From a virus (taxonomy: Duplodnaviria > Caudoviricetes): 60,737 nucleotides of DNA. Positions 1 through 53,448 of the stretch are shown here, piece after piece; position 1 is the stretch's first letter, and every line of letters starts with the position of its first letter. A model generated the notes under the pieces. The model saw only the letters and a list, made by a program, of their open reading frames with translations. It was not told the origin of the DNA and did no database searches. Both the position numbers and the translations under genes were made by a program. Location of the stretch: IMG/VR virus record IMGVR_UViG_3300025699_000009, positions 1-60,737 of that record; one strand, written 5' to 3'.

Positions 1-1201
1 CTTGCTCAGGTGCCATCCCATTGATGACATCCCTTCTAAAGTTTGCCATGTATCCCAACACACCCATGATATCACCAATGATAGTTGGAGCAGCAGAGGC
101 TCGCGCGTAGAGACGTGCGCCTCTTCCTAAGAAACCACCGCGTTGATTTATGCGACCACGGGTGGGTACACCCCCTTCGAGACCTACTACGTCGCCCTTC
201 ATACCCATCTTAAGACGATACTTAAACTGAGGAGACATCTCCCGTGCGATACGCATATACTTACGAGGCTGTGCCATGACAGCAGCGAAGTCTGCCGTCC
301 ACAACAGCAAGTCTAAGCCGGGCATCCGCTTCCCGCTTTTCAAGTAGGTGTAATCCGGGAACGCTTGAATGGCAGAGGTAGCCTGCTTCAATATCTGAAC
401 GGCCTTGAATGCGAGAGCTACCCCGGTGTATGCCGTTTGCATCCAACTTAGCGCACGGTTATCGTACATAGCCTGCTTAGCTGAATCGGGGTTGATGGCT
501 TGGTTGATGGATTGTCGTACCGCCCCGGTCATCCGAAGCATATCCATTACGTTCAGAACCGACTCGTTGTTTATGATGGAGTTCAACGTGCGCGTATCTG
601 CAGCGTAAGCCTTGAACCTTTCCATCGAACGGTAGTGGTCATTGAGAGCGGTAGTAAAGCTTGCGCCCTTCATCTCAATCTCACTATCCGTGTCGCTACG
701 TTCTTTCAATCCTGAAGCAAACTCTGCATCAAAGATTGCATTGAAGTCTCCATCTGCCAACAGGTCAGCATCTACCTTGCCGATAGTGCGTGTCGGGAAG
801 TAGTTGGATATGTAGTTTAGGTTTACGTCGTTTACCTCACGATACACGTTGTTCACGCTCTCGTAGTATTCGTTGCTCAGGTAATCAACCGTTGCATCAG
901 CAAAGCCCATCAGCTCAGTACCCAAGTAACTCTCTATCTCTGCAGCAAACGTAGGGTCATCGAAGTCCATGCCCATGCGACGAAGTTTGTCTCGCTGAAC
1001 AGGATTCTTGGATAGAGAGTAGAGCCGCAGGATTTGGTCTTTGTCAAACTCTTCAGTGCTTCTTCGCTTGGGGTTATCAATTGGATTGTAATCAAGCGTA
1101 AGGGTTGGAGAGCTATAGATTTCACGTGATAACGCCTCGTAGCTTTCAAACCCAAACTCTTGAGCCAAAGCATCCATCTTGTTTTCAGTCTGCTCAAAGA
1201 A
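1..1201. repeat. Terminal direct repeat, copy A (divergent from copy B)
   Basis: Colinear with 59537-60737 at offset 59536, with no indels seen. The first 127 nt are identical; dozens of substitutions follow, mostly synonymous in the giant-gene frame. Confidence 0.95.
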
Positions 1202-22314: not shown

Positions 22315-22348
22315 TAAAAAAAAGGGTGGGGGTTTGAACCCCCACCCT
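22315..22348 (-). terminator. GGGGGTTCAAACCCCC hairpin element doubling as terminator after the capsid gene
   Basis: AGGGTGGGGGTTCAAACCCCCACCC followed by a T-tract on the minus strand, just after the MCP stop. Confidence 0.8.
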
Positions 22349-41304: not shown

Positions 41305-41527
41305 TGGTGTAGGGGATGTCTCCTACCATCAGGCTGTGGCCTGCGTGTTTGTCGAAGTAGATGGTGTCTGCTTCCTTGATTCCCTTTACCTCCGTACCTA
41401 CAGCATTGACCGTAGCCTTTTTGTAGCGGAAGTCTTTGGTGTCCTGAACAGATAGGATAAGCCCTGACTTGCTCTTCATCTCTTCATCGATAGGAGAGAT
41501 GGCGATGTATTTGCCTATTGGTTTCAT
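41270..41527 (-). CDS. groES: Co-chaperonin GroES
   Basis: MKPIG...KSKSGLIL...VNAVG...IKEAD.IYFDK.AG...IIRESDV. Confidence 0.9.
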   Translation of the reverse strand: MKPIGKYIAISPIDEEMKSKSGLILSVQDTKDFRYKKATVNAVGTEVKGIKEADTIYFDKHAGHSLMVGDIPYTIIRESDVVIVE

Positions 41528-43164
41528 TGTGCCTCATATGTTCGTGCCATAGTAATAATAGCGTTGGTACTTAAGATGCTCACTGCTACGGACACTGCGT
41601 TCTGCAGGGCTACCCGCGTAACCTTGCACGGGTCGATGACTCCCATCTCGATGAGGTCTCCATACCTCGCGTTCTTCACGTCGAAGCCATGCCCCTCTTT
41701 AGTTACTAAGTTCTTCATAGCCGTCTCGTATACATCAGCAAATGAACTACCCGCATTAATAATTATCTGACACACAGGAGAACACAACGCTTCAGATAGA
41801 ATAGCTGCAGCTACAAGGTCTTCAGATTTTTTATACTCCTCGTTCAAAAGCTTCATCTCAATTTTTTGATGCTCGTTATAAAGAGCGACACCTCCGCCGG
41901 GAAGAACGCCCTCCTCAAGAGCGGAGCGCACGGCGCATACAGCATCATCAACCCTATCGTATAGCTCCTTCTGCTCAAGGTCAGTGTTCCCACCTACGCG
42001 GATAACTCCTATGCCACCCGTCAAGGAAGCAATACGAGAAAGGATAAAGTCTTTGTCCGCCTTCTTCGTTGCCAACTTCGCCGCATCCTTCAGCTCGCTT
42101 ACGCGCTTCTTCACAGCATCGGCAGCTTTAAGGTTGTCCTTGATGATGATGGTTTGGTCTTTACCCACGATAACCTTCTTGGCTGAACCGAGGTCAGAAG
42201 GTTGGATAAGGCTGAGGTCGTCGCCCGTAGCTTCAGAGAAGTAAGTAGCTCCCAAACTCAAAGCAATGTCTTGCATAAGCTCGTGCTGCTTATAGCCAAA
42301 GCTCGGAGGAGGAATAGTGCAAATCTTTACCTTCTGCTTCATCACGTTTGCAGCCAACGTGTTGGTAAGCTGCTGAGAGGTAGGCGCAATGATTAAAAGC
42401 TTGCGGTTCTTAGTAGGGTCAACTACATACGTCAGTACCTTCTCGATAGCATGGATGTTATCCATCTCAGCATCCGAAACCAAAACAAGGCAGTCCTCAT
42501 ATACGCACTCGTCCTTCTTGTGGTTGTTGATGAACAACGGAGTAGCATAACCACGCTCTACCTTGATGCCCGTAGTAGTCTCAAATGTAGTGTCGCTCGT
42601 CTGACTCTTCTCCACAGTAACCATCCCCGTCTTGCCAACCTTGTTGTAAACGTCAGCGATAATCTTTCCAACCGTATCGTCATTGTTCGCAGAGATAGTC
42701 GCTACGTCAAGAAGCATCTTCTTGGTTACAGGACGAGAACGATTCTTCAAAGAATCAACCACCTCGTTGGTAAGGCTCACAAGCGAACGCAGAACCTTCG
42801 TCTTGTTGGCATACTTGTTCTCCTCAAACATCTCGACAGCAGCCTTTACCAAACCCTCAGTCAAAACAATAGCAGTCGTCGTGCCATCGCCCGCAGAGGT
42901 AGCAGTACGCTCAGCAGCTTCCTTCATCATGCGAACCGCTAAGTTCTCCGTAGGGTCAACTAGGTCAACCGACTTCGCTACAGTAACACCGTCCTTCGTC
43001 ACAGTAATGCCGTGAGTGTGATGAGGTGATTCGATAAGTACAGTATTGCCGCTAGGCCCAAGCGTACTCTTTACAGCATTGGACAACTTTGTGATTCCAC
43101 TAATGAGGAGGGTGCGACCATCCTCGCCAAATTTTAAGTCCTTGGGACTGTAGCCTTCGTTCAT
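41524..43164 (-). CDS. groEL: Chaperonin GroEL
   Basis: AVKSTLGPSG, TKDGVTVAK, GDGTTTA, EEGVLPGGG and GVIDP.KVTR motifs. Confidence 0.97.
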   Translation of the reverse strand: MNEGYSPKDLKFGEDGRTLLISGITKLSNAVKSTLGPSGNTVLIESPHHTHGITVTKDGVTVAKSVDLVDPTENLAVRMMKEAAERTATSAGDGTTTAIVLTEGLVKAAVEMFEENKYANKTKVLRSLVSLTNEVVDSLKNRSRPVTKKMLLDVATISANNDDTVGKIIADVYNKVGKTGMVTVEKSQTSDTTFETTTGIKVERGYATPLFINNHKKDECVYEDCLVLVSDAEMDNIHAIEKVLTYVVDPTKNRKLLIIAPTSQQLTNTLAANVMKQKVKICTIPPPSFGYKQHELMQDIALSLGATYFSEATGDDLSLIQPSDLGSAKKVIVGKDQTIIIKDNLKAADAVKKRVSELKDAAKLATKKADKDFILSRIASLTGGIGVIRVGGNTDLEQKELYDRVDDAVCAVRSALEEGVLPGGGVALYNEHQKIEMKLLNEEYKKSEDLVAAAILSEALCSPVCQIIINAGSSFADVYETAMKNLVTKEGHGFDVKNARYGDLIEMGVIDPCKVTRVALQNAVSVAVSILSTNAIITMARTYEAQ

Positions 43165-43187
43165 TGAATTGAATTTAATTGATGTGT

Positions 43188-43195
43188 CAAATATA
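43188..43195 (-). promoter_or_regulatory. Bacteroidota -7 promoter box upstream of groEL
   Basis: TATATTTG; the 15-mer TTATATTTGACACAT is identical to the promoter at 37982-37996. Confidence 0.65.
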
Positions 43196-43200
43196 AGGCT

Positions 43201-43342
43201 CCCTATAGAGAGAGAGAGAAAAACTATTTTTTCGTTTTTACTTCCCTATGTACGGAGTTAAGTTAACATTATCGACACTTTAGCTGAGTATCAATAAGTT
43301 AGCTTACACTTCACCAACACAAGCAATGTTGAAAAACGACAC
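43201..43342. other. Origin-like element A (IHF-type site plus YRACAY repeats)
   Basis: 43241-43301 aligns ungapped with 53348-53408 (40/61); TATCAATAAGTTA fits the IHF consensus WATCAANNNNTTR. Confidence 0.5.
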
Positions 43343-43347
43343 TAAAT

Positions 43348-43376
43348 GAAAAGAGAGAGGCATCACCCTCTCTCCA
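43348..43376 (-). terminator. Intrinsic terminator
   Basis: GAGAGAGG-GTGATG-CCTCTCTC followed by TTTT on the minus strand. Confidence 0.6.
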
Positions 43377-43400
43377 ATCATCAATCACATTTAATGTCTC

Positions 43401-43592
43401 TCAAATTAAACGCAATCCTTTCCGCATCTCCTTCCGCATCTCAGCACGTTCGATGCCGTCGGCTATGCAATCTATTTTATACTGCTTCTTCATTTGCTGA
43501 CGATACATGGCAGCCTCCTGTATGCCCGTCATATGATTCGGTCGATTGTTAATCAGCCGACCATTTTTGATAGTGAGTCCTTCTGCTTTCAT
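43401..43592 (-). CDS. Hypothetical protein (63 aa)
   Basis: First minus-strand ORF, followed by a terminator. Confidence 0.6.
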   Translation of the reverse strand: MKAEGLTIKNGRLINNRPNHMTGIQEAAMYRQQMKKQYKIDCIADGIERAEMRKEMRKGLRLI

Positions 43593-43803
43593 ACCGCTAA
43601 CATACGAAAAGTTTTTAGATGTCTGTACTGTTTAGGCTCCCTGCCGTCTGACGCGCGCACCACCTCATCTCGAACCCAAAGTTTCGGTTCGGGGGGGGTG
43701 ATGTTTTCAGCACCTTCCTCCGGAATTTTTGACCTTTTTCTAAATCGGTAAGCCCCGTCCGGAAACCCGCGCCCACAGCGGGCTACAGCGCGGCCGCTGT
43801 ATC

Positions 43804-43827
43804 CGGTGGGGGTTCGAACCCCCACCG
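43804..43827. repeat. GGGGGTTYRAACCCCC hairpin element
   Basis: CGGTGGGGGTTCGAACCCCCACCG perfect palindrome. Confidence 0.9.
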
Positions 43828-44016
43828 AAGAAGAGCACCTACCTGCCCTGCTCCCCCTATCCCACAAGGAGAGAGAGGAGTTCAGAGGAACTCCCTAGCC
43901 CCACGACCAAAGAAAATGCATCTTACAAAACATCGGGAAAGCCTTGCTACCATTGGGCTGTAGAGCGAGAGAGAAAAGAAAGCGAACTACCCGAAGTGAA
44001 TTCGTGGCCGGATAGC

Positions 44017-44048
44017 TTGTGTAATAGACATTAATTACACTATATTTG
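44017..44048 (+). promoter_or_regulatory. Early promoter P1 (-33 TTG / -7 TATATTTG, AGACAT spacer motif)
   Basis: Bacteroidota consensus with correct spacing. Confidence 0.75.
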
Positions 44049-44101
44049 TGTCAGCAATGCACGAACAAATGACTGCTTGCAAATCTTAAATCTCTCACAT
44101 C

Positions 44102-44770
44102 ATGTTTAACAACTTAAACGAACTCGAAGTAGCATACTTCACAGCCTTCAACGCAAACGGCACTACGCTTGCAAAGTTCTACACTGCTCAGAAGAGCATC
44201 AAGAAATCAGGAGACGCAGTCTTCGAGAAGCGCATCAAGCTATGGCATCAGGTTGACTCGCTGTGGACAGCATTCAACTCCGACGAGGAGAAAGCACGAC
44301 GAGCGGAAGCAGGCATCACGATGACATCAACTGACTTCTCAAAGAAAGTGCTTGGATATAAAGACAGAAGCATGAAAAACTCCATCCTTCGTGCTGTGAA
44401 TAGCATCAATGACAACAGCGATTTGATGACAGCCTACAAGCGTGAGATGACTCGTCTCGGCAAGGGACGTTCGCTCAAGGGATTCAATGCCTTTGCGAAG
44501 CAGGTTGAAGCGCAGGTCTCCAAGGGAGCTACCACAGATGAAGCGGCAGAAGCTACTGCTGATGCAATTGCTACTGCTGATGCTGTTTCCTGCATCGCTC
44601 AACTGCAGTTCTTCGGTCTGCAGAGCGGACGTGTCGCACTCAAGGAGGACGGCACATTCGATTTCACTTCGGTGAACCTACAGCAGGCTGTTGAAGGTGC
44701 GAAGAGTTTTTACGAGCTACTTGCGGCAGAAGCAGTGCGACAGCTCAACGAGCAAGCTCCTGCAATCTAA
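44102..44770 (+). CDS. First early protein, function unknown (222 aa)
   Basis: Follows promoter P1; TCTCTC-type leader. Confidence 0.8.
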   Translation: MFNNLNELEVAYFTAFNANGTTLAKFYTAQKSIKKSGDAVFEKRIKLWHQVDSLWTAFNSDEEKARRAEAGITMTSTDFSKKVLGYKDRSMKNSILRAVNSINDNSDLMTAYKREMTRLGKGRSLKGFNAFAKQVEAQVSKGATTDEAAEATADAIATADAVSCIAQLQFFGLQSGRVALKEDGTFDFTSVNLQQAVEGAKSFYELLAAEAVRQLNEQAPAI

Positions 44771-44791
44771 GTGGGGGTTCAAACCCCCACT
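44770..44791 (+). repeat. GGGGGTTYRAACCCCC hairpin element
   Basis: AGTGGGGGTTCAAACCCCCACT overlapping the stop codon. Confidence 0.9.
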
Positions 44792-44793
44792 CA

Positions 44794-44843
44794 GTTACAC
44801 TGACGAGACCTGAATGGTCGAAACGCTGTGAAGCGTCTGTAAC
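44794..44843 (+). ncRNA. Hammerhead ribozyme, type I (predicted cleavage after GUC, C44837)
   Basis: Stem I GTTACA/TGTAAC; core CTGACGA; stem II GACC-TGAAT-GGTC; GAAA; stem III CGCT-GTGA-AGCG; GTC triplet. Confidence 0.92.
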
Positions 44844-44861
44844 AAATCTAATCTCTCTCTC

Positions 44862-44933
44862 ATGACTCCTGAAAACCTCTACAGAATCTCAACCGCTATC
44901 CTTTGGATTGCATTTATACTCTCTCAGCTATGA
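44862..44933 (+). CDS. Small hydrophobic peptide (23 aa, MTPENLYRISTAILWIAFILSQL)
   Basis: AATCTCTCTCTC leader as in other early genes; ATGA overlap with the amidoligase start. Confidence 0.6.
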   Translation: MTPENLYRISTAILWIAFILSQL

Positions 44934-45907
44934 TTAACTACACAACAGATTCTAACAGCTACCGAGGCACCCTGATGGGCTACCATGGTTCTCCTGCTCC
45001 GCAGGACTTCCGCTCCGGTGCATCCGTATCGGATATCGCAGGCTTGCGTCCTGTAGACCGAGCATCCCTCAAGCAGGTCAGCCTGACGGAGATTGGTGCT
45101 AAGTACGGCATCGGATTCGAAATCGAGAAGACATCCTTCGCTCGCAATGCGATGAAGGCCATGCCATTGTTCGCAGGGTACGAGCGTGACTCATCCTGTG
45201 GGTATGAAGCAGTGACCAACATCCTGCCTTTGCTCCCTGCATCGGAATGGCGCAACAAGGTGTACTCCATGTTCCATCAGGCGGAGCGCATCTTGGATGA
45301 CCAATGGTCACCATCCAACCAACGCTGTGGTGGCCACATCACCCTATCCTGTGACGGCATGAATGGAGGTGAATTGATGGAGCACATCCGTCCGTACTGC
45401 GGCATCCTACTCTCGCTCTATCGCAGACGATTGAAGAACAGCTACTGCTCTCGCAATCCAAACCTGCGCTTGGCGCATGAAGTTGAGAGTGCGCTTGGCG
45501 GAATCGCTTCGAAGTACAATGTTGCCAAGGTGATGAGTCATGGGGTTGAGTTCCGCCTTCCATCTCGCGTTCGCTCGGTGAGCGACATGAAGCGCAGGTA
45601 CGAGCTGATGTACGTCTTGGTTGACTGCGCTCGCCAATCGTTCGAAGGCAATGCACCGACATGGGCGAAGGCGATGTCACGCATCAAGCCAATCGTCTCA
45701 CTCATGTACCGAGACGAAGCGAAGGAGCAGAAGATTCTATCTCTCGCCAAGGATATGCAGAAGTTCATCAACACCGGCAAGATGGAATTCTCAGTGCTCC
45801 CATTCATCGACCCGTATGCAGAGACTGCATCATCCTTCAGGACGCGACGATGCAACCGACTGATTGCGCAGGGTGAGCGAGCTTACTACAGCGAGTCGCG
45901 ATGGTGA
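44930..45907 (+). CDS. Putative amidoligase (COOH-NH2 ligase, Amidoligase_2-like)
   Basis: GFEIE, DSS, E.VT.IL, CGGHI and VEFR motifs; start taken at the ATG at 44930. Confidence 0.72.
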   Translation: MINYTTDSNSYRGTLMGYHGSPAPQDFRSGASVSDIAGLRPVDRASLKQVSLTEIGAKYGIGFEIEKTSFARNAMKAMPLFAGYERDSSCGYEAVTNILPLLPASEWRNKVYSMFHQAERILDDQWSPSNQRCGGHITLSCDGMNGGELMEHIRPYCGILLSLYRRRLKNSYCSRNPNLRLAHEVESALGGIASKYNVAKVMSHGVEFRLPSRVRSVSDMKRRYELMYVLVDCARQSFEGNAPTWAKAMSRIKPIVSLMYRDEAKEQKILSLAKDMQKFINTGKMEFSVLPFIDPYAETASSFRTRRCNRLIAQGERAYYSESRW

Positions 45908-45915
45908 GACCTTTG

Positions 45916-45937
45916 GGTGGGGGTTCAAACCCCCACC
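45916..45937 (+). repeat. GGGGGTTYRAACCCCC hairpin element
   Basis: GGTGGGGGTTCAAACCCCCACC, 8 nt after the stop and abutting the second ribozyme. Confidence 0.9.
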
Positions 45938-45990
45938 TGCTGTCGGGCGATGTGCATCGCTCCTGATGAGTCCGAAAGGACGAAACAGCA
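45938..45990 (+). ncRNA. Hammerhead ribozyme, type III (predicted cleavage after GUC, C45944)
   Basis: Stem III TGCTGT/ACAGCA; GTC; stem I GGGCGA-TGTGCA-TCGCTC; core CTGATGA; stem II GTCC-GAAA-GGAC; GAAA. Confidence 0.95.
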
Positions 45991-46027
45991 AACCAACAAA
46001 CGGGTGATGGCCTACCATCGAAACGTC

Positions 46028-46117
46028 ATGAACAATATCGAATCACAAGTCAAGTGGGTTTTCCGAATTGCCATTGCATTCCTCTTCCTTGCCGCGTACC
46101 TAACATCAGGCTGTTAA
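46028..46117 (+). CDS. Small hydrophobic peptide (29 aa, MNNIESQVKWVFRIAIAFLFLAAYLTSGC)
   Basis: Single transmembrane-like segment ending in a lipobox-like LTSGC. Confidence 0.5.
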   Translation: MNNIESQVKWVFRIAIAFLFLAAYLTSGC

Positions 46118-46136
46118 TAACTTTTAACATTCATTG

Positions 46137-46168
46137 TTTGGAATTAGACATTCATTGCACTATATTTG
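46137..46168 (+). promoter_or_regulatory. Early promoter P2
   Basis: TTTG-N20-TATATTTG with GAATTAGACAT in the spacer. Confidence 0.8.
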
Positions 46169-46216
46169 TACTATCAATCACGGAGGAACACTCCTCCACT
46201 AAAATCTCTCTCTATC

Positions 46217-46552
46217 ATGCGTAGACAACGCAACCCCCACACGAGCGGTGAGAACCGCAACCATTACACCAAAGGCTATCAGGCCAAGGTGGAGTTTTGG
46301 ACAGGCCAACTGCTACAGCCTGACGGCAGGTACTCGCACGAGCGAGTCATGCAATCGCTCCTTCACTTCCAATCTAAGCAACAGGAATGGTGCGAGGCAA
46401 ACGAGACAATGCTCATGGCTAAATTCGAAGATGCCTGTCGTGCAGGACACGGCACGCTGAACGCTCAGGTAGACTTCATGGGCTTCGGTCAGCAGGCCAC
46501 ATTGCACTGCCGTGACATCGTTACAGCACAGCAAAACAAGCGTCAGTCATGA
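46217..46552 (+). CDS. Early hypothetical protein (111 aa)
   Basis: ATG at 46217 after the TCTCTCTC leader. Confidence 0.7.
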   Translation: MRRQRNPHTSGENRNHYTKGYQAKVEFWTGQLLQPDGRYSHERVMQSLLHFQSKQQEWCEANETMLMAKFEDACRAGHGTLNAQVDFMGFGQQATLHCRDIVTAQQNKRQS

Positions 46553-46671
46553 AGCAGTTCGCAGAAGAAGCACTCATCATGGCACTGACTGCGATAGCAT
46601 TCGTTGCGTTCCTTGCAATGGCCTGCTATCTCCATGACTCTTTAGAGTACATTCCAAACCCTATCAAGTAA
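46549..46671 (+). CDS. Small membrane protein (40 aa)
   Basis: MKQFAEEALIMALTAIAFVAFLAMACYLHDSLEYIPNPIK; ATGA-coupled. Confidence 0.6.
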   Translation: MKQFAEEALIMALTAIAFVAFLAMACYLHDSLEYIPNPIK

Positions 46672-46677
46672 TCAATC

Positions 46678-46887
46678 ATGCAAACACCAAGCAACACAAG
46701 TGTCAAAAAGGAGGACGAGCTATGGGTATTCGCGGCATTCCATTACGGATGGATGATGAAGGACTTCAAATCAGTCAACGTCCGAGAGTTTGCCGAAGAA
46801 ATCGGTTTGCCCTACGAGCAGGCATTATATGTGTCTGACAACTATGAACGCTTGCTCAAAGAGCACGGTCACCTCTTCTCTTACTAA
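46678..46887 (+). CDS. Early hypothetical protein (69 aa)
   Basis: Operon packing. Confidence 0.65.
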   Translation: MQTPSNTSVKKEDELWVFAAFHYGWMMKDFKSVNVREFAEEIGLPYEQALYVSDNYERLLKEHGHLFSY

Positions 46888-46897
46888 TCTTCAATCA

Positions 46898-46919
46898 GGT
46901 GGGGGTTCAAACCCCCACC
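46898..46919 (+). repeat. GGGGGTTYRAACCCCC hairpin element
   Basis: GGTGGGGGTTCAAACCCCCACC, 10 nt after the stop. Confidence 0.9.
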
Positions 46920-46934
46920 ATAAATCTCTCTCTC

Positions 46935-47195
46935 ATGAAATTCTACAGAACATTCATGGTCTCGTATCAAGCACCAACAGAACACAAAGGTGCGCGAGTC
47001 CGAATCAAAGACCTCTCCGAAGGCACACGTATCTTCATCCCATTCAACTACGAGTTGAACACCATCACAGAGATGGCGAAGGCTCACCTTAAATCAATTG
47101 GGATTCCAATCGTGGCTGAGGCACTCACCCACAAATCAGGATGGGACTCTTACCTGCTACTCTCGAACGAGTACGTAAACCTCCTTGAGAAATGA
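46935..47195 (+). CDS. Early hypothetical protein (86 aa)
   Basis: ATG at 46935 after AAATCTCTCTCTC; Y..PT..KGARV.I pattern. Confidence 0.7.
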   Translation: MKFYRTFMVSYQAPTEHKGARVRIKDLSEGTRIFIPFNYELNTITEMAKAHLKSIGIPIVAEALTHKSGWDSYLLLSNEYVNLLEK

Positions 47196-47347
47196 TTAAG
47201 GCAGGCATCCAATTTCGTACTGCCACATGGCGTGAGTGGTACATAGTCAAGACATTCAAGAATCAACCACACATGGACAACTTCATTGAATACATCTGTC
47301 GAACCAAAGGCTACACCTTGGATGAGGTATGGCACTTAAATAAATAA
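47192..47347 (+). CDS. Early hypothetical protein (51 aa)
   Basis: MIKAGIQFRTATWREWYIVKTF...; ATGA-coupled. Confidence 0.6.
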   Translation: MIKAGIQFRTATWREWYIVKTFKNQPHMDNFIEYICRTKGYTLDEVWHLNK

Positions 47348-47349
47348 TC

Positions 47350-47760
47350 ATGAAGACATACTTCAACGAAGAAGGACAGCATCAAGCTGACTTCGATAGG
47401 ATGTGGGACGCATACGTACCCGCACAAGGCGAGGCTGACACAGCACACGGAGAAGCCATCCGTATCATCGCGCGATTCTCTTACGACATCTACAACAACG
47501 GAGGAGGCAACCTCTTCGAGAATGATGAAGACTACACTTGGAATCCTTACTACTCAGCCATGGCTGACAACCTCACAGAGTTCATGATAGGTTCAGGGTT
47601 GGATATCAGGCGAGAGATACGCCATGTAGTAACAGTTGGTATTGACCGACATGGATGGGATGAAGTTGTATCCCGATTCGAACCATTGATGGATGCCGTC
47701 ATCAGACGCGCACTGCACGAAGAAGAAGTTTCATTATCTAAAAAAGAACACCATGCCTAA
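47350..47760 (+). CDS. Early hypothetical protein (136 aa)
   Basis: VPAQGEADT..GE.IR...YDIYNNGGGN pattern seen in phage early proteins. Confidence 0.75.
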   Translation: MKTYFNEEGQHQADFDRMWDAYVPAQGEADTAHGEAIRIIARFSYDIYNNGGGNLFENDEDYTWNPYYSAMADNLTEFMIGSGLDIRREIRHVVTVGIDRHGWDEVVSRFEPLMDAVIRRALHEEEVSLSKKEHHA

Positions 47761-47986
47761 TATGTCATACTGCCGTTTTGAAAACACGTCCAACGACCTT
47801 GAGGATTGCGTAGATGCAATCAACAGCGAGCGATGCTTACGCGATGAAGGACTCGACAAGTACGAGCGAAGAGGGTTACTGAAGATACTAAATCTTGCCA
47901 AGCAAATTGTCAAGGAAGAAGAGTACATCCGCAAGCTACTAACTCACGACCATAGACCATGGAACGAACCTCATAGCAATGGGTAG
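47753..47986 (+). CDS. Early hypothetical protein (77 aa, NMSYCRFENT..DL.DC)
   Basis: Recurrent phage motif; start at the ATG at 47753. Confidence 0.7.
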   Translation: MPNMSYCRFENTSNDLEDCVDAINSERCLRDEGLDKYERRGLLKILNLAKQIVKEEEYIRKLLTHDHRPWNEPHSNG

Positions 47987-48023
47987 CTGTGCTTGAGAGA
48001 CTGCACAGCATCCATACGGGGGG

Positions 48024-48047
48024 TGGTGGGGGTTCAAACCCCCACCA
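48024..48047 (+). repeat. GGGGGTTYRAACCCCC hairpin element
   Basis: TGGTGGGGGTTCAAACCCCCACCA. Confidence 0.9.
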
Positions 48048-48080
48048 TCTTTCTCCCCTAAAAAAAAATATCTCTCATCA

Positions 48081-48112
48081 TTTGGAATTAGACATCTTTT
48101 GTACTATCTTTG
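48081..48112 (+). promoter_or_regulatory. Early promoter P3
   Basis: TTTG-N20-TATCTTTG with GAATTAGACAT in the spacer. Confidence 0.8.
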
Positions 48113-48143
48113 TACAATCATTAATCATTTAAACACATCTCTC

Positions 48144-49175
48144 ATGTGCGTTATCATTATCAAACAACAGACCGACAAGGTCATAGACCAAACCATACTG
48201 CGCTCGTCTGCGCGTATCAACCCACACGGGTTAGGAGTTACATGGCTCGACACATTCAAGACAGAGTACTATAACTCAGCAGACTACGATGTGCTTGAAA
48301 CCAAGCGACCCTTCATCGCACACTTCCGATACGCTACCATAGGTGGGGTGACTCAGCACAATATGCACCCATTCGTATGCGGTACTCAAGACCACGAGCT
48401 ACTCATGATGAACGGTACAATCAAAGGATTGGGTGACAAGACAGATTGCGACAGCCGAGTTCTAGCAGGTATGCTCGGAGAACTGCCGCGTGATACATGG
48501 AAGGATACATTGGAGGAGCACGAGTGCCGATTCACTACCATCAATACCAAGGCTCGCACCTTTGAGATATACAACGAAGATATGTGGCACACGCATGACG
48601 GCATCATGTACTCAAAGCCCAACGTCCTGTTCACCAACACGATTGCGGTATACGGTACGCTCAAGAAGGGACAGGGCAATCACCCACGATTCCTGTCACG
48701 AGCAGAGTTCGTAGGTTCAGGTATCACGCAGGACAAGTACCCGCTCTTGATTGACGGACTACCTTACCTGCTACCTGAAAAGGGGACAGGTCACCGAGTA
48801 GAGATGCACGTGTTCCGTGTGACGGACGAGATGCTATACGATGTGGACATACTCGAAGGTCATCCACGTTGGTATGTGCGTGAGCAGATACCTGTCCATG
48901 TGGGTAGCGAGACGCACATGGCTTGGACATACTTCAACCCCAAGCACCGACAGCCATCTGATGAGATGCACTACACGTTCCCTGCGCCCTCACCATGGGA
49001 CGCTGATATGGCTGAAGACGATGAGCTTCTGCCCCTTGAATATGGCAACGCATACTACTGCCTTAATTGCTTCAACGCGGTAGAGAAAGATAACTCAGCC
49101 TTTGATACATACACCTGCAAGACTTGCAGTGAGAGCTTTGATGAAGCAGAACTAAACCAATACAAATTATTCTAA
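48144..49175 (+). CDS. Class II glutamine amidotransferase fused to gamma-glutamylcyclotransferase (AIG2-like) and a Zn ribbon (343 aa)
   Basis: N-terminal MC, NPHG.G, HFRYAT.G, HPF, NGTI, DSR; then VYGTLK.G..NH, LEGHP..Y.R, AW.Y; CLNC/CKTC at the C-terminus. Confidence 0.85.
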   Translation: MCVIIIKQQTDKVIDQTILRSSARINPHGLGVTWLDTFKTEYYNSADYDVLETKRPFIAHFRYATIGGVTQHNMHPFVCGTQDHELLMMNGTIKGLGDKTDCDSRVLAGMLGELPRDTWKDTLEEHECRFTTINTKARTFEIYNEDMWHTHDGIMYSKPNVLFTNTIAVYGTLKKGQGNHPRFLSRAEFVGSGITQDKYPLLIDGLPYLLPEKGTGHRVEMHVFRVTDEMLYDVDILEGHPRWYVREQIPVHVGSETHMAWTYFNPKHRQPSDEMHYTFPAPSPWDADMAEDDELLPLEYGNAYYCLNCFNAVEKDNSAFDTYTCKTCSESFDEAELNQYKLF

Positions 49176-49429
49176 TGGACAAGAATAGAATACCCGACTG
49201 CCTTAATTGGATGACCGATGACATGGTAGGTGCAGGAGCACCTGCCGATGCAGGTGAAGCCAAGTTAAACGAATGGCTCTATGAGTTCTTTGACGAGTAC
49301 GAATCAGGAATCATGGAGTACATACAAAACGCCATGCAAGAGTTCGTGCAATCAAAAGAACCTGTAGAGTACGGAGAAGATGAGCGAGGATGCGACAAGT
49401 ACCATCAACAAAAAGATGACGCGCTATGA
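49175..49429 (+). CDS. Acidic hypothetical protein (84 aa)
   Basis: TAATG-coupled. Confidence 0.6.
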   Translation: MDKNRIPDCLNWMTDDMVGAGAPADAGEAKLNEWLYEFFDEYESGIMEYIQNAMQEFVQSKEPVEYGEDERGCDKYHQQKDDAL

Positions 49430-49605
49430 GTGACAACATAACACCACTGAGTAAAGAGATAGCTCAGGTCATAATGAATCGGATTGTCCTTAAACGCATA
49501 ACACCATCAGGCGTTGATGACTACAAGGATATAATGAGTGAGATAGAATCAGCGGTAAGCGAGATGCTAGTACAAATAGATAACCACTTTTGCGATGAAC
49601 AGTAA
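49426..49605 (+). CDS. Hypothetical protein (59 aa)
   Basis: Hand-translated; ATGA-coupled. Confidence 0.5.
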   Translation: MSDNITPLSKEIAQVIMNRIVLKRITPSGVDDYKDIMSEIESAVSEMLVQIDNHFCDEQ

Positions 49606-49741
49606 AGAGATACAAGGCTTGATTGAATACGTAGAGAATCCTGACAACAGGATGCAAGGCGGATACCACGTAACAGACGTGGAGATGTTAAACATAGTGA
49701 TGAATAAACTTAAAAGATTAGCAAAAAATATAGAGCAATGA
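49595..49741 (+). CDS. Hypothetical protein (48 aa)
   Basis: Hand-translated; ATGA-coupled to the next gene. Confidence 0.5.
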   Translation: MNSKEIQGLIEYVENPDNRMQGGYHVTDVEMLNIVMNKLKRLAKNIEQ

Positions 49742-50097
49742 ATCACACATTTAAAAACAACGGTCTGATTGCAGACTTTATGGGGAAGCCCCGACACCAA
49801 GAGTACAAGACCTTCTTCAGGGTAGAGAACGAGGACGGCTCTGTAGGTATGGTACACGCTGAAGACTTCAAGTATCACACCTCGTGGGATTGGCTGATGC
49901 CTGTGGTACAAAAGATAAGCAACATGAAAGAGGTGGAGGTTGAGTTCACTATAGGTGACAGGTTTGTTTGGGTGACTGCTGAATTCGGGGACAGCGTGTT
50001 CTTTAGCGGTAATAACCCTGAAGACAAGAAAGAACCAATGATATCAAAAGTTTATCGTGGGGTTGTGAGTTACATAGAAAAAACATCAGAGCAATGA
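49738..50097 (+). CDS. Hypothetical protein (119 aa, LIADFMG / YHTSWDWLMPVV motif)
   Basis: Motif recurrent in Bacteroidota phages. Confidence 0.75.
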   Translation: MNHTFKNNGLIADFMGKPRHQEYKTFFRVENEDGSVGMVHAEDFKYHTSWDWLMPVVQKISNMKEVEVEFTIGDRFVWVTAEFGDSVFFSGNNPEDKKEPMISKVYRGVVSYIEKTSEQ

Positions 50098-50300
50098 ACA
50101 AAAAGACATACCCATTCAGTGAAGGAGACGAGTACTACTCAGTGGTCACCCGCGATGACGGACGAACAGAACTAATTTGGTCTATATGGGATGACGTCAG
50201 CGAAGAGATGCATGACAAAAATCCTCAGCAACTTTACTACACCACCAACCACGCACTTGAATTGGCTCGCATCAAGCCATGCTCAATTATTCTTTATTAA
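50094..50300 (+). CDS. Hypothetical protein (68 aa)
   Basis: ATGA-coupled. Confidence 0.6.
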   Translation: MNKKTYPFSEGDEYYSVVTRDDGRTELIWSIWDDVSEEMHDKNPQQLYYTTNHALELARIKPCSIILY

Positions 50301-50314
50301 ACTATATTTACACC

Positions 50315-50563
50315 ATGGCTGTACTAATTAAATCAGATGGTAGTCAGCACGACTACCCAAACTACACCACCCTCGAAGGCAAGCAAGCCGCTGTCGGTGG
50401 ATACATTGAACCCGTATACCTTGACAACAAGGTGTTACTCGTGAATGAAGAAGGTCTCATTCATCAGCTACCCGTTAACGAAACCGCTTCCGCGATGGCA
50501 CAGCAGATACTTGTTGGTGACATCCTTCTCCTGACGAGGGAAGAGTGGAACGAAAACAATTGA
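50315..50563 (+). CDS. DUF3846-like protein (82 aa)
   Basis: LE..Q.AVGGYIE.V, VNEEG....LPVN, LVGD; -7 box TATATTTA 4 nt upstream. Confidence 0.75.
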   Translation: MAVLIKSDGSQHDYPNYTTLEGKQAAVGGYIEPVYLDNKVLLVNEEGLIHQLPVNETASAMAQQILVGDILLLTREEWNENN

Positions 50564-50564
50564 T

Positions 50565-50936
50565 ATGAAAGAATTTTTTAAAGGGGCGTTGGTCAACGCC
50601 AAGTATTACGGCGACACTGAAGCCCGCATCGCAGAGCTGAAGAAGCTCCAAGGAAAAGAAAAGTATAATGTATCAGACCTATCCAAGTTTGGTAAGCTTA
50701 TGCCACGCGAAAAGTTTGAGGAACAGTACCCGTTCCTGTGCGACAACCTACACAAAGATTGCACAGACGTGTGGATGTATCTTCAGAACTATTTCGTGCA
50801 AGCACTGAACACTGGAAGGTTCTACAACAATCAGTTCACGAAACGCGGAAAGACAGAGAAGGATATCAAAAAGATAGAAGAATATATCTTTGAGAAGATA
50901 GAAAAAATGTCTAAAGAATCCTTGGTTTCTGTCTAA
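50565..50936 (+). CDS. Hypothetical protein (123 aa)
   Basis: Operon packing. Confidence 0.65.
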   Translation: MKEFFKGALVNAKYYGDTEARIAELKKLQGKEKYNVSDLSKFGKLMPREKFEEQYPFLCDNLHKDCTDVWMYLQNYFVQALNTGRFYNNQFTKRGKTEKDIKKIEEYIFEKIEKMSKESLVSV

Positions 50937-50952
50937 TAGTTTCGTATCTTTA
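50921..50952 (+). promoter_or_regulatory. Promoter P4 upstream of the replication module
   Basis: CTTG-N20-TATCTTTA with inverted motif TGTCTAAT in the spacer. Confidence 0.55.
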
Positions 50953-50976
50953 CATCATCATTAATCATTCTCTCTC

Positions 50977-51174
50977 ATGTCTAAAATTAAACAGACCCTT
51001 GGCGAAAGCCAACACGATGACACGTTCCTTGATGACACCTTCCGTGTTCAACAACGAACGATTGTACCCACACCCTACATCATAGGTGCTATTCGTCAAA
51101 TCTTTGACGACCAACTATTTGCTATCCAAATGGAGCAAGCCAAATCTAAATCTAATGAAACGAAACATCTTTGA
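50977..51174 (+). CDS. Hypothetical protein (65 aa)
   Basis: TCTCTCTC leader. Confidence 0.6.
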   Translation: MSKIKQTLGESQHDDTFLDDTFRVQQRTIVPTPYIIGAIRQIFDDQLFAIQMEQAKSKSNETKHL

Positions 51175-51457
51175 GCAATATGTATCAGCAGTAAGCCAAC
51201 GCTTCGACGTTCCCAAGGAGGAACTGTTCAGCAAGAAGAAGCATCGACACTTGGTTGATGCAAGACATATGCTGTACTACCTGTGTGCCAAGCGACCAAT
51301 GAACATCAGCTACATTCAGATGTACATGGCCGACAGCGGATACGATATCTGTCATTCATCCATCATCCATGGAATCAAGAAGGTCACCCAACAGGTAGAG
51401 GCAGACCAAGATTATCAGTCATTGATTTCTGATATCAACAATCATCTTTCATCATAA
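51155..51457 (+). CDS. DnaA C-terminal-like helix-turn-helix protein (100 aa)
   Basis: V...FDV..EELFSK.K...LVDARH...YL...HSSIIHGIKKV; start at the ATG at 51155. Confidence 0.75.
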   Translation: MKRNIFEQYVSAVSQRFDVPKEELFSKKKHRHLVDARHMLYYLCAKRPMNISYIQMYMADSGYDICHSSIIHGIKKVTQQVEADQDYQSLISDINNHLSS

Positions 51458-51476
51458 CGGGGGTTTAAACCCTCAC
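51458..51476 (+). repeat. Degenerate GGGGGTTYRAACCCCC hairpin element
   Basis: CGGGGGTTTAAACCCTCAC immediately after the stop. Confidence 0.7.
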
Positions 51477-51490
51477 TTAAATTCAACGCA

Positions 51491-52105
51491 ATGGAAAAGA
51501 AACAATCAGTGTTTCATACTTTGTCGGCTCTCAATGTCAAGGACAAAGTTCGTAAGAAGAACAACCTGAGCTACGTCTCATGGTCAGATGCTTGGGCTAT
51601 GCTCAAGAAGCTTTACCCCACCGCACAGCGCACCATCTATGAGCATGAGCATACAGGGTTCTGCTACTTTACCGACGGCAATACCGGATGGGTAAAGGTG
51701 GGCATCACAGTGGAGAACATAGAGCACATTGATATGCTACCCATCATGAACTTCCGCAACCAAAGCATCACAGTGGATAATATCACGTCGATGGATGTGA
51801 ACAAAGCAATCCAACGTGCGACAGTGAAGGCCATAGCTATGCACGGTCTTGGACTCGCCGTCTATCAGGGCGAAGACTTGGAGGACGTAGCTCCGCCCGC
51901 ACCAAAGCCCAAGCCAAAGGCAGAGGGTAAGGAGAAGCTCACCACCAAGGGTGACAAGTGGGTAGCTGCTGTCAACTACTTCACCAAGAATGCGCAGACA
52001 GATATCGCAGAGCTGTTCAAGTTCGTGGAGAAAAGCTACGACCTGCCACCACGTGTGAAGGCCAAGCTCAAGGAGGTACACGCTCAAGCTCAGACCAATG
52101 GTTGA
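51491..52105 (+). CDS. Single-strand annealing protein (Sak/DUF1071-like)
   Basis: KKNNLSYVSWSDAW...LPIMNFRN...DVNKAIQR..VKAIAMHGLGL.VY.GED. Confidence 0.8.
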   Translation: MEKKQSVFHTLSALNVKDKVRKKNNLSYVSWSDAWAMLKKLYPTAQRTIYEHEHTGFCYFTDGNTGWVKVGITVENIEHIDMLPIMNFRNQSITVDNITSMDVNKAIQRATVKAIAMHGLGLAVYQGEDLEDVAPPAPKPKPKAEGKEKLTTKGDKWVAAVNYFTKNAQTDIAELFKFVEKSYDLPPRVKAKLKEVHAQAQTNG

Positions 52106-52829
52106 TATCATTGAGCAACTCAGAGACGACTCAAACTACTACGGCAAGGTAGGTAGGCAGTATCTATCCAACTCGGACATAGGTACTTTGCTTACTAACC
52201 CCGCAGAGTTTGGTGTCAAGCGCGAAGACAATGTGAACTTTGCCAAGGGCAGGTTATTCCATCAGTCAATCCTTGAGCCGGACAAAGCACGTGACTTCTT
52301 GCACATCGATGTAAGCACACGCACTACGAAAGCATACAAGGAGTTCATCGCTGAGAACAACGTCCCTTTCTGCTTGCTGACCAAGGAGGTCAACGAGATA
52401 CTTGATTCAGTAGAGAAGATGATGTCCAACTTCACATTCTTCTCAATGATATTCAAGCAGGGTGCAACATATGAACAGCCTGCTGTTGGAGAAATCATGG
52501 GGCGTATGTGGAAGGGCAAGGCAGACATCGTTACTGACGATGCCGTGTATGACCTGAAGACAACGGGTGACATCAACAGCTTTGCTCGGTCAGCTAAGAG
52601 GTACAACTACGACAGTCAAGCCTACATCTACGAACAGTTATTCGGAAAGCGTATGCAGTTCTTAGTGATAGACAAGACGACCGGATGCCTTGGTCACTAC
52701 ACCGTATCAGATGAGTTCGTTCTCGATGGTGCGCGGAAAGTATCCAAAGCCATTGAGGTTTACGATAAGTATTTCTCTGCTGATGCACCGGATGATATCA
52801 GTTCATTCTACATAACTGATGTTCTTTAA
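52098..52829 (+). CDS. PD-(D/E)XK exonuclease (RecE C-terminal/DUF3799-like)
   Basis: LSNSDI, GRLFH..ILEP, KGKAD, DLKTT, Y.Y..QA.IY. Confidence 0.8.
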   Translation: MVDIIEQLRDDSNYYGKVGRQYLSNSDIGTLLTNPAEFGVKREDNVNFAKGRLFHQSILEPDKARDFLHIDVSTRTTKAYKEFIAENNVPFCLLTKEVNEILDSVEKMMSNFTFFSMIFKQGATYEQPAVGEIMGRMWKGKADIVTDDAVYDLKTTGDINSFARSAKRYNYDSQAYIYEQLFGKRMQFLVIDKTTGCLGHYTVSDEFVLDGARKVSKAIEVYDKYFSADAPDDISSFYITDVL

Positions 52830-52943
52830 AAGAAAAACCTTGCGGATAGAAGTTCCAACTGTCCGCGACACTTCACAAGCCAAGCAAGACTTGATTGATG
52901 CAGTGGCAATTTTTTTGGAGCATGAAATAAAAGTTACTTGCAA

Positions 52944-53255
52944 ATGTCAAATGACAAAAAAAAAGAACCCGCCATTTGGGTGGACGGTCTTCGAATCTTT
53001 GAGGTCAAGGAAGGCCAAGGCCGCTCTTGGGGAATCGGAGACATCGTGATAGACCCTGATGTGTTCATCGCTTGGTTACACAAACAACCACGTAGGGAGG
53101 ATGGTGCCGTCCGGATTGCCGTGAACCTGAGCGACCGCACAGGGAATTGGTATACCCAACTCGACACCTTCGTCCCGAAGAAGAAACAGGAGGAAGCTCC
53201 CGCACCTCAACCCGCTCCCCCGGTTGAGGCAGAGGAAGAGGACACTCCCTTCTAA
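52944..53255 (+). CDS. Putative single-stranded DNA-binding protein (103 aa)
   Basis: Beta-rich core, Pro-rich linker, acidic EEEDTPF tail; next to recombination genes. Confidence 0.65.
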   Translation: MSNDKKKEPAIWVDGLRIFEVKEGQGRSWGIGDIVIDPDVFIAWLHKQPRREDGAVRIAVNLSDRTGNWYTQLDTFVPKKKQEEAPAPQPAPPVEAEEEDTPF

Positions 53256-53259
53256 TGCA

Positions 53260-53289
53260 GGGGGGTGGGGGTTCAAACCCTCACCCCCT
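53260..53289 (+). repeat. GGGGGTTYRAACCCCC hairpin element (extended, one G-U)
   Basis: GGGGGGTGGGGGTTCAAACCCTCACCCCCT, 4 nt after the stop. Confidence 0.8.
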
Positions 53290-53308
53290 TTGTGTTAATT
53301 ATCAACGT

Positions 53309-53448
53309 CCCTATTGTTCTTTTATATTTTATTCTATCTTTACTTTCCTTCCCTTACGTGAAAGAAAAGATAACATTTTCAACATCACAACTGAAAATCA
53401 ATTAGTTACCTCCTCCAATTCAACACCATCTCGACATGACCTCGACAC
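53309..53448. other. Origin-like element B upstream of the primase gene
   Basis: AT-rich tract, IHF-type AATCAATTAGTTA, YRACAY repeats; degenerate copy of 43201-43342. Confidence 0.5.

Follow-up and report, generated by a model that had tools for sequence, protein, structure and literature searches.

Hammerhead ribozymes have been known to flank phage genes since 2011. In prophages, several of them often lie together around single genes or short blocks; the role proposed for them was the cutting of long phage transcripts into gene-length mRNAs, and three of these gene-flanking arrangements cleaved in vitro, as Perreault et al. reported in 2011 (PMC3088659). After cleavage, the upstream product ends in a 2',3'-cyclic phosphate and the downstream one starts with a 5'-OH (PMC6155905), and the role of bacterial and phage hammerheads has been termed open in reviews (PMC6155905, PMC6765202). 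In an engineered context, the ribozyme of the plant satellite sTRSV has been joined to an added 23-nt hairpin downstream, giving the insulator RiboJ (PMC8794103). Here, we describe a hammerhead at positions 45938-45990 of the IMG/VR virus record IMGVR_UViG_3300025699_000009, which was analyzed over its entire 60,737 bp (hereafter, the window). It sits in an early/middle operon of a ~60-kb marine tailed phage, behind a gene of 325 amino acids (aa). With a probability of about three in four, we consider it a genuine type III hammerhead, active by prediction, which would punctuate the operon and leave the upstream mRNA with a hairpin at its end. The reasons are the motif itself, the significance of the Rfam match, the conservation of position, the covariation, the restriction to the gene strand and the coupling to a hairpin.

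The likeness to the prophage hammerheads of PMC3088659 lies in the flanking of phage genes. Compared with that description, the present elements belong to a family of marine ~60-kb phages rather than to a prophage, are very regularly spaced and include no type II, and their cut is tied to a long hairpin that either lies just upstream of a type III hammerhead or is itself stem III of a type I. Moreover, in some relatives the place of the hammerhead is taken by a tRNA-like element. What is new is this replacement, together with the coupling to the hairpin. The main text of PMC3088659 contains no instance of “terminator” or “stem-loop” and two unrelated ones of “hairpin,” and mentions no adjoining hairpin; likewise, in the literature covered (freely accessible journals, main texts), we found no description of hairpin coupling, of a hairpin acting as type I stem III or of a tRNA-like replacement.

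The preliminary description of this element had stressed a close resemblance to sTRSV and RiboJ. What stands is the canonical layout: the topology is type III, stem I (~6-7 bp) is closed by a small loop, stem II has 4 bp and a purine-rich tetraloop, stem III is short, and the cut is predicted close to the 5' end, with the ribozyme body staying on the downstream RNA. This layout is generic, however, and the hairpin that lies downstream in RiboJ (PMC8794103) is here upstream, on the other cleavage product. The element is not derived from sTRSV, and the hammerheads nearest to it form a large class in phages. An upstream hairpin, natural phage contigs from many sequencing runs and orthologues with other stems do not fit an insulator of the RiboJ/sTRSV kind. 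Phage T7 offers another comparison, its RNase III sites between early cistrons leaving an upstream message that ends in a stable stem-loop. In both cases the phage transcript is polycistronic, and the cut, which is only predicted here, separates cistrons and gives the upstream message a stem-loop at its end, but in T7 the host enzyme cuts within the stem, whereas here a self-cut is predicted beside it, with 2',3'-cyclic phosphate and 5'-OH ends. A third comparison is tRNA punctuation, in which operon mRNAs are cleaved by RNase P. About 11 relatives have a tRNA-like acceptor stem plus T-arm in the place of the hammerhead, although the window has none, and these elements, which RNase P may cut, are not full tRNAs.

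The type III hammerhead and its adjoining hairpin

The string quoted in the preliminary description is present exactly as given, and its identification as a type III hammerhead is borne out by the core, the helices, the covariance model and the relatives. From 5' to 3', it consists of TGCTGTC (45938-45944), GGGCGA (45945-45950), TGTGCA (45951-45956), TCGCTC (45957-45962), CTGATGA (45963-45969), GTCC (45970-45973), GAAA (45974-45977), GGAC (45978-45981) and GAAACAGCA (45982-45990). The core is complete, with CTGATGA as C3-U4-G5-A6-N7-G8-A9 and GAA (45982-45984) as G12-A13-A14; the pair A15.1-U16.1 is A45985 with T45943, and H17 is C45944, making a GUC triplet. Since the open helix is stem III (TGCTGT/ACAGCA, 6 bp), the element has type III topology. 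Stem I (GGGCGA(T)/(A)TCGCTC, 6-7 bp) is capped by a loop, and stem II (GTCC/GGAC, 4 bp) has the loop GAAA and is closed by G10.1-C11.1 (G45970-C45981). The minimum-energy structure of the isolated 53-mer is the three-helix hammerhead (-19.7 kcal/mol, z -2.44; 4 of 200 shuffles fold equally well). The Rfam model Hammerhead_3 (RF00008) aligns in full (model positions 1-54) to 45937-45991 (+) with 45.7 bits, the expectation value (E) being 3.9e-9 for the 301 nt searched locally and 7.9e-7 for the whole window on both strands with all 4227 families.

We also used a strict descriptor, which demanded the exact core words, A15.1-U16.1, H17 and minimum stem lengths in all three topologies. It found exactly two sites in the window, the type III element and a type I hammerhead at 44794-44843, which the preliminary description did not list. 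The latter consists of stem I GTTACA/TGTAAC, core CTGACGA, stem II GACC/GGTC with loop TGAAT and stem III ACGCT/AGCGT with loop GTGA, with a predicted cut after C44837. It scores 31.9 bits against RF00163 (gathering score, 34), with E values of 5.2e-4 for the whole window and 2.2e-6 locally, and when a 116-nt context is folded, the minimum-energy structure contains the hammerhead (z -3.14). The two hammerheads enclose the 325-aa open reading frame (ORF) and a 23-aa ORF ahead of it, and the RNA predicted to be excised, 44838-45944, has 1107 nt.

The predicted cut of the type III hammerhead falls after C45944, 7 nt beyond the 3' end of a hairpin, GGTGGGGG-TTCAAA-CCCCCACC, that joins stem III without any linker (Table 1). 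This is a repeated element. Its core GGGGGTTCAAACCCCC was found at 11 sites of the window with at most 3 mismatches (5309, 22328, 33073, 43808, 44773, 45919, 46901, 48028, 51459, 53267 and 58580), against 0.27 expected on both strands. The copies lie at gene ends on both strands and are oriented with the local genes, and the one at 44771-44790 sits 3 nt 5' of the type I hammerhead. A run of T follows some copies, such as that near 22328 on the minus strand (T8) and the terminator-like 53259-53290. The hairpin ahead of the type III hammerhead was considered as an intrinsic (Rho-independent) terminator and rejected, since it is followed by TGCTGTCGGG, and the G+C-rich stem-loop with a direct T-run that defines such terminators is not found; neither it nor 44771-44790 is among the 14 terminator-like sites detected in 43000-54000, which do include the 53259-53290 copy. 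A tRNA T-arm was also discarded, the Rfam matches to mascRNA and tmRNA being insignificant (12.5 bits, E 9.5; 12.8 bits, E 0.16) and the loop having 6 nt instead of 7. Related phages have different hairpin stems, often with the same TTCAAA loop.

The sequence next to the ribozyme on its 3' side is also conserved. The stretch ACGGGTGATGGCCTACCAT (46000-46022), ~10 nt beyond the hammerhead and directly after the type III hammerheads of four relatives (L128-L131) as well, is able to fold into a 5-bp hairpin that contains an ATG. Within the ribozyme, the loops are conserved among relatives (T-G-N-G/T-T-R in loop I and N-A-A-A in loop II), which hints at a contact between loops I and II, as the preliminary description had assumed.

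Hammerheads, hairpins and tRNA-like elements in related phages

A profile search showed that 220 IMG/VR stretches encode a homologue of the 325-aa gene, of which the best 80 (432 kb, from phage contigs of ~60 kb) were kept. In these 80 loci, the strict descriptor detected 138 hammerheads, 97 of type III and 41 of type I, all of them (138/138) on the strand of the gene, no type II (432 kb), and no match at all in three shuffles of the 80 loci. At least one hammerhead was present in 68 of the 80. A type III hammerhead starts no more than 250 nt after the stop of the homologue in 49 of 78 loci, a count that rises to 57 when the interval is widened to -120 to +250, because some reading frames run into the ribozyme. 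It stays after the same gene down to ~40% protein identity. Upstream of the gene, within 400 nt, a hammerhead was found in only 15 of 79 relatives, 7 of them type III, and the rule that a type I upstream and a type III downstream would yield an mRNA free of ribozyme was discarded accordingly.

Stem sequences at this single conserved genomic position are genuinely diverse. Two relatives with ~92% protein identity (L001 and L002) have retained both hammerheads, and stem III of their type I shows two compensated base pairs. In L003 (72% protein identity), the entire stem II of the type III has been exchanged, from GTCC-GAAA-GGAC to T-GACTC-AAAA-GAGTC. The extra U that follows the core in L003 recurs in 28 of 82 distinct phage hammerhead sequences, and such an insertion is known to be tolerated from the viroid literature. 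The covariation alignment was made from 45 of the 57 orthologues and the window element, duplicates and near-duplicates being dropped by hand, and held 45 distinct rows. In it, 98.6% of the cells are standard pairs, against 34-47% in controls with slid partners, 13 of the 18 pairs have changed on both sides, and 192 cells are compensatory, compared to 54 in shuffles (0 of 500 shuffles reach 192), all of these being counts that are inflated, and partly circular, because the orthologues were chosen by a descriptor that demands pairing.

The distance between hairpin and cut is the most regular feature of the family. In 95 of 116 distinct hammerheads, the cut is preceded at a distance of 1-12 nt by the end of a hairpin with 7 bp or more, as opposed to 8% of random positions (1271/16000). 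The type III hammerheads contribute 69 of 78, mostly at 5-6 nt, and the type I 26 of 38; in 24 of the latter the hairpin is stem III itself and the distance is 1. The stems of these hairpins vary, and the commonest loop is T-TCAA-A (42 of the 95). We found the same coupling in a second sample of 118 unrelated IMG/VR loci, taken from among the matches listed for a generic type III pattern, with 59 of 104 type III and 11 of 18 type I, versus 989 of 11800 random positions. With respect to the genes, the stop codon upstream lies a median of 30 nt before the start of the type III hammerhead, which leaves room for the hairpin, and at -6 to 0 for type I, i.e., inside stem I. Downstream, the median distance to the next ATG is 22 nt for type III (40 nt or less in 58 of 75) and 16.5 nt for type I. 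The window conforms to this pattern (the stop is 30 nt before the type III hammerhead, and the ATGs are 18 and 16 nt after the type I and type III, respectively) but differs in that its type I has a short stem III, with the hairpin placed ahead of the ribozyme.

We inspected by eye the 21 loci in which the strict descriptor gave no hammerhead after the gene. Six have a variant type III, 11 a tRNA-like element (10 by descriptor and 1 by eye) and 4 neither. Among the variants, L145, L162, L174 and L190 have a non-Watson-Crick 10.1/11.1 pair, L195 combines it with a stem II of 2 bp and L161 has a stem III of 3 bp. In the first five, A-A or U-U opens stem II instead of G10.1-C11.1 (e.g., CTGATGA-AGC-GAAA-GCA-GAAAC), and such variants recur in many phage contigs, including several of the loci L008-L125. 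In the tRNA-like element, an acceptor-like stem of 5-7 bp encloses a linker of 10-13 nt, in which GG is conserved, and there is a T-arm whose loop, GTTCGANTC, is invariant; in 18 aligned copies, varied stems surround this loop. These elements are intergenic, on the gene strand, and often beside the usual hairpin of the phage, where other relatives have hammerheads. The descriptor for them gave 34 matches on the gene strand and 1 on the other, compared to 12 in three shuffles on both strands, and 10 of the 34 lie directly after the gene. Thirteen matches are false, being parts of true tRNAs (L133, L134, L141 and L174) or coding regions (L160 and L166), and in total there are 21 tRNA-like elements in 11 loci. 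ARAGORN found no tRNA gene in the 15 loci tested for these elements, and no Rfam family matched them except for a weak tmRNA T-arm. Six loci (L140, L146, L149, L152, L167 and L169) have a tRNA-like element and no strict hammerhead anywhere.

Proposed operon punctuation and its alternatives

We propose the following sequence of events. During transcription of the operon, the ribozyme would fold and cut after C45944. The upstream RNA would then end with the hairpin followed by the 7 nt UGCUGUC>p, carrying a 2',3'-cyclic phosphate, while the downstream RNA would start with a 5'-OH and contain the ribozyme body, a 16-nt A/C-rich leader and the next ATG. Were the type I hammerhead to cut as well, after C44837, both cuts would release a 1107-nt message with one gene and a small ORF. 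The hairpin would protect the new 3' end from exonucleases, and a 3' end would be formed in the absence of any protein and with the polymerase still running, each cistron acquiring its own stability. Forming 3' ends without stopping the polymerase is most likely the purpose of the arrangement, and a cut placed a few fixed nucleotides after a long hairpin points to this kind of hairpin-protected end. Cleavage in vivo, the shielding of the 3' end and separate stabilities or translation rates of the cistrons are what we infer from the sequences. RNA-library contigs from two runs cross both predicted cuts, although contigs hide RNA ends and the libraries may contain DNA.

Several observations speak against this interpretation, besides the circularity of the covariation counts. 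The RF00008 score is 2.8 bits short of the gathering score of the family (48.5), and a default gathering run is therefore empty, so that the check suggested in the preliminary description gave a significant match that lies below the cutoff. It should be noted that the gathering score is a curated threshold for annotation and not a structural feature, that most of the loss comes from the loops (loop I is 5 nt longer and loop II 4 nt shorter than in the model) and that relatives score 47.0 and, in one case, 48.7, above the cutoff. When 111 nt of context are folded, the minimum-energy structure lacks stem III, GCUGUC pairing instead with GAUGGU of 45900-45905, and stem III is open in the centroid structure as well. 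Loop I of the window has a C where at least 90% of the 46 aligned relatives have T. Only 2 of the 11 hairpin copies have a ribozyme. In the relative MW202828.1, whose homologue of the 325-aa gene has 42% protein identity, no hammerhead was found in 8.9 kb at E values up to 5. Finally, the L003 copy of the type I hammerhead (L003:2870-2919) reads CCGATGA, with C replacing the conserved core U4; its stem II is compensated (GTCC/GGAC in place of GACC/GGTC). This copy may be weak or dead, judging from its core, and not every copy need be active.

The alternative that survives best, although we regard it as rather unlikely, places the benefit downstream. The cut would give the next cistron a defined 5' end, made up of the 5'-OH, the ribozyme body and a short leader free of structure, insulating or boosting its translation or stability as RiboJ does in engineered operons, and the hairpin would be a folding insulator or a helper that stacks on stem III. 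The fixed spacing to the next ATG and the linker-free junction of hairpin and stem III would suit this role, and so would the leaders, which in the family are rich in A and T (A, 50%; G, 6%), 1 of 100 having a Shine-Dalgarno-like 4-mer; in the window, such words precede only 3 of the 51 long ORFs. Self-cleavage in a 5' untranslated region can drive translation in some eukaryotic RNA viruses (PMC13725137). However, where the hairpin is stem III of a type I hammerhead (24 of 38), the cut is 1 nt after it and the hairpin is kept on the upstream product, and in L001 the type III hammerhead is followed within ~45 nt by a promoter-like repeat, with no ORF in between. In the broader sample, Shine-Dalgarno-like words are present in 45 of 98 leaders, and we discarded translation free of such words as the general cause. 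This alternative is compatible with operon punctuation, and the element may play both roles together.

It seems improbable that these hammerheads are decaying or selfish remnants, for example of junctions of mobile gene cassettes, cleaving with no benefit for the phage. The gene content beside them does vary, and small ORFs come and go: the 23-aa ORF is present in L003 with mostly synonymous changes and absent from L001 and L002, and the 36-aa ORF is absent from L001. A 1039-nt RNA-library contig matches 34 nt of the type I hammerhead (44793-44826) and is unrelated upstream. The break at this point in the RNA-library contigs reflects an assembly that branches into a different sequence, and the 1039-nt contig suggests the existence of another phage variant in which this type I ribozyme has different surroundings. 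The altered core base in L003 and the lack of a hammerhead in MW202828.1 would also be expected of remnants. Nevertheless, remnants would hardly keep the same position after the same gene over such protein divergence, lie without exception on the gene strand or have covarying stems around an intact core.

Marginally less probable still is conditional cleavage, in which the 5' strand of stem III would alternate between the ribozyme and its pairing with 45900-45905, at the stop codon; the choice would depend on the passage of ribosomes or on some other signal. The alternative pairing is the minimum-energy structure of the 111-nt context, but it makes up only 2.7% of the ensemble, the energy model omits tertiary contacts, and in L003 the pairing is not evident by eye. 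We consider it very improbable that the 1107-nt RNA is circularized by a host ligase acting on the 5'-OH and 2',3'-cyclic phosphate, or that the flanking RNAs are spliced together. The end chemistry is compatible (PMC6155905) and the idea has been put forward for prophage hammerheads (PMC3088659), yet the authors, in that article, detected no such products, the mapped contigs contain no back-joined or skipping joint (a weak test), and few relatives have the upstream hammerhead required. As for contamination of the assembly with a synthetic RiboJ or a vector, the general layout is like that of an sTRSV-derived insulator, but contigs spanning the phage and independent orthologues rule it out: as the preliminary description had asked to be confirmed, the element lies inside phage genes in a 27.5-kb contig from one DNA run, which covers all of 43000-49500 with 14 differences, and in an 11.8-kb contig from another, which covers 43000-47119, at least half of the sampled words are present in 16 runs (several of which may be the source sample), orthologues with different stems are found in dozens of independent IMG/VR contigs, and the hairpin is on the other side of the ribozyme than in RiboJ.

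These elements would also supply compact natural parts with which cistrons could be separated in hosts whose translation initiation is not led by Shine-Dalgarno sequences. The same gene boundary in the ~80 relatives sampled amounts to a natural test, with type III hammerheads mostly, variants in some and tRNA-like elements in others. The helix formed by an acceptor stem and a T-arm is a sufficient substrate for RNase P, and the tRNA-like elements would, by their sequence, be cut by a host tRNA-processing enzyme of this type. Should that hold, 74 of 78 loci would have an RNA-cutting signal at the boundary, and the cut itself would be what selection keeps. We put forward, tentatively and with more doubt than conviction, that these are interchangeable cutting modules behind a stabilizing hairpin, namely, type III hammerheads, type I hammerheads in which the hairpin is stem III, and a tRNA-like substrate of a host enzyme. 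In that case, selection on phage hammerheads would simply keep a cut beside a 3'-end hairpin, and the question of what hammerheads do in bacteria and phages would have an answer that is concrete and can be tested.

Genomic context

TABLE 1 Positions of the ribozymes, hairpins, ORFs and related elements in the window and, where a locus is named, in relatives
Feature	Positions	Strand	Remarks
Type III hammerhead	45938-45990	+	Rfam RF00008 match, strict descriptor, fold, orthologues
Canonical hairpin GGTGGGGG-TTCAAA-CCCCCACC	45916-45937	+	Abuts 5' strand of type III stem III, no linker
Hairpin copy GTGGGGG-TTCAAA-CCCCCAC	44771-44790	+	Starts directly after stop of ORF 44102-44770; no T-run after it
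Type I hammerhead	44794-44843	+	RF00163 match, strict descriptor, fold, kept in L001/L002
ORF, 23 aa, hydrophobic	44862-44933	+	ATG 18 nt after type I hammerhead; stop overlaps next start (ATGA)
325-aa gene between the hammerheads	44930-45907	+	Homologues in 220 IMG/VR stretches
ORF, 36 aa, hydrophobic	46007-46117	+	First ATG 16 nt after type III hammerhead, inside hairpin GATGG-CCTA-CCATC
Promoter-like repeat TTTG-N20-TAnnTTTG	46137-46168	+	Second copy at 48081-48112
tRNA-like elements	L146:2418-2457, L146:3358-3400, L167:1886-1925, L169:5011-5050	Gene strand	Descriptor
tRNA-like elements	L149:3403-3448, L180:3595-3639	Gene strand	Descriptor

The window encodes a portal protein, a large terminase, virion proteins, a GroEL-like chaperonin and a primase/helicase. 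Megablast of 44000-48000 gave no close relatives among the GenBank phages. Among GenBank records, an uncultured podovirus from a spring comes nearest (67% identity in the primase/helicase), and the weaker relatives are phages of Flavobacterium, Nonlabens, Polaribacter, Cellulophaga and other Bacteroidota. DNA of the window occurs in many marine metagenome runs. From these relatives, the metagenome occurrence and the scarcity of Shine-Dalgarno words, the host is probably a marine member of the Bacteroidota. The promoter-like repeat that follows the 36-aa ORF suggests that the transcription unit with both hammerheads ends at about 46137-46168, and therefore that the type III hammerhead is near the end of the unit. 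The generic pattern of this repeat is at chance level (2 found, 1.47 expected), but both copies share an exact 14-mer.

The preliminary description had the cut leave an amidoligase mRNA that ends 7 nt past a hairpin. The hairpin and the predicted spacing are as it described, but amidoligase is only a lead for the 325-aa gene, drawn from a look-alike cluster and the domains of a neighboring gene. The protein had no Pfam or PHROG match even at an E value of 10, and a profile search of solved structures was also empty. In one look-alike Atlas cluster, PF12224 is found on 12% of the members, and the neighbor at 48099-49175 (+) has a strong gamma-glutamyl cyclotransferase domain and weaker, subthreshold glutamine amidotransferase matches. 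A cyclotransferase gene also lies directly 3' of the homologue in MW202828.1 (L007). This homologue (L007 3290-5014) has 574 aa, with 237 extra N-terminal residues. We considered the 222-aa and 325-aa ORFs of the window as the halves of a split gene, but the former is unlike the N-terminal part of the 574-aa protein (best E, 5.4).

With regard to the type I hammerhead, a kissing contact between its loop II (TGAAT) and the hairpin loop (TTCAAA) was considered and rejected, as in L003 the hairpin loop is TTTGAA and loop II is the same. Inspection by eye of 39 type I sequences revealed no consistent complementarity between loop II and the 5' flank. Elsewhere in the window, a giant ORF at 2-9781 (-), of at least 3260 aa, runs off the end of the record and has no PHROG match at an E value of 1e-5. 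The gene for the GroEL-like chaperonin is located at 41524-43164 (-) and matches its PHROG with an E value of 1.9e-130.

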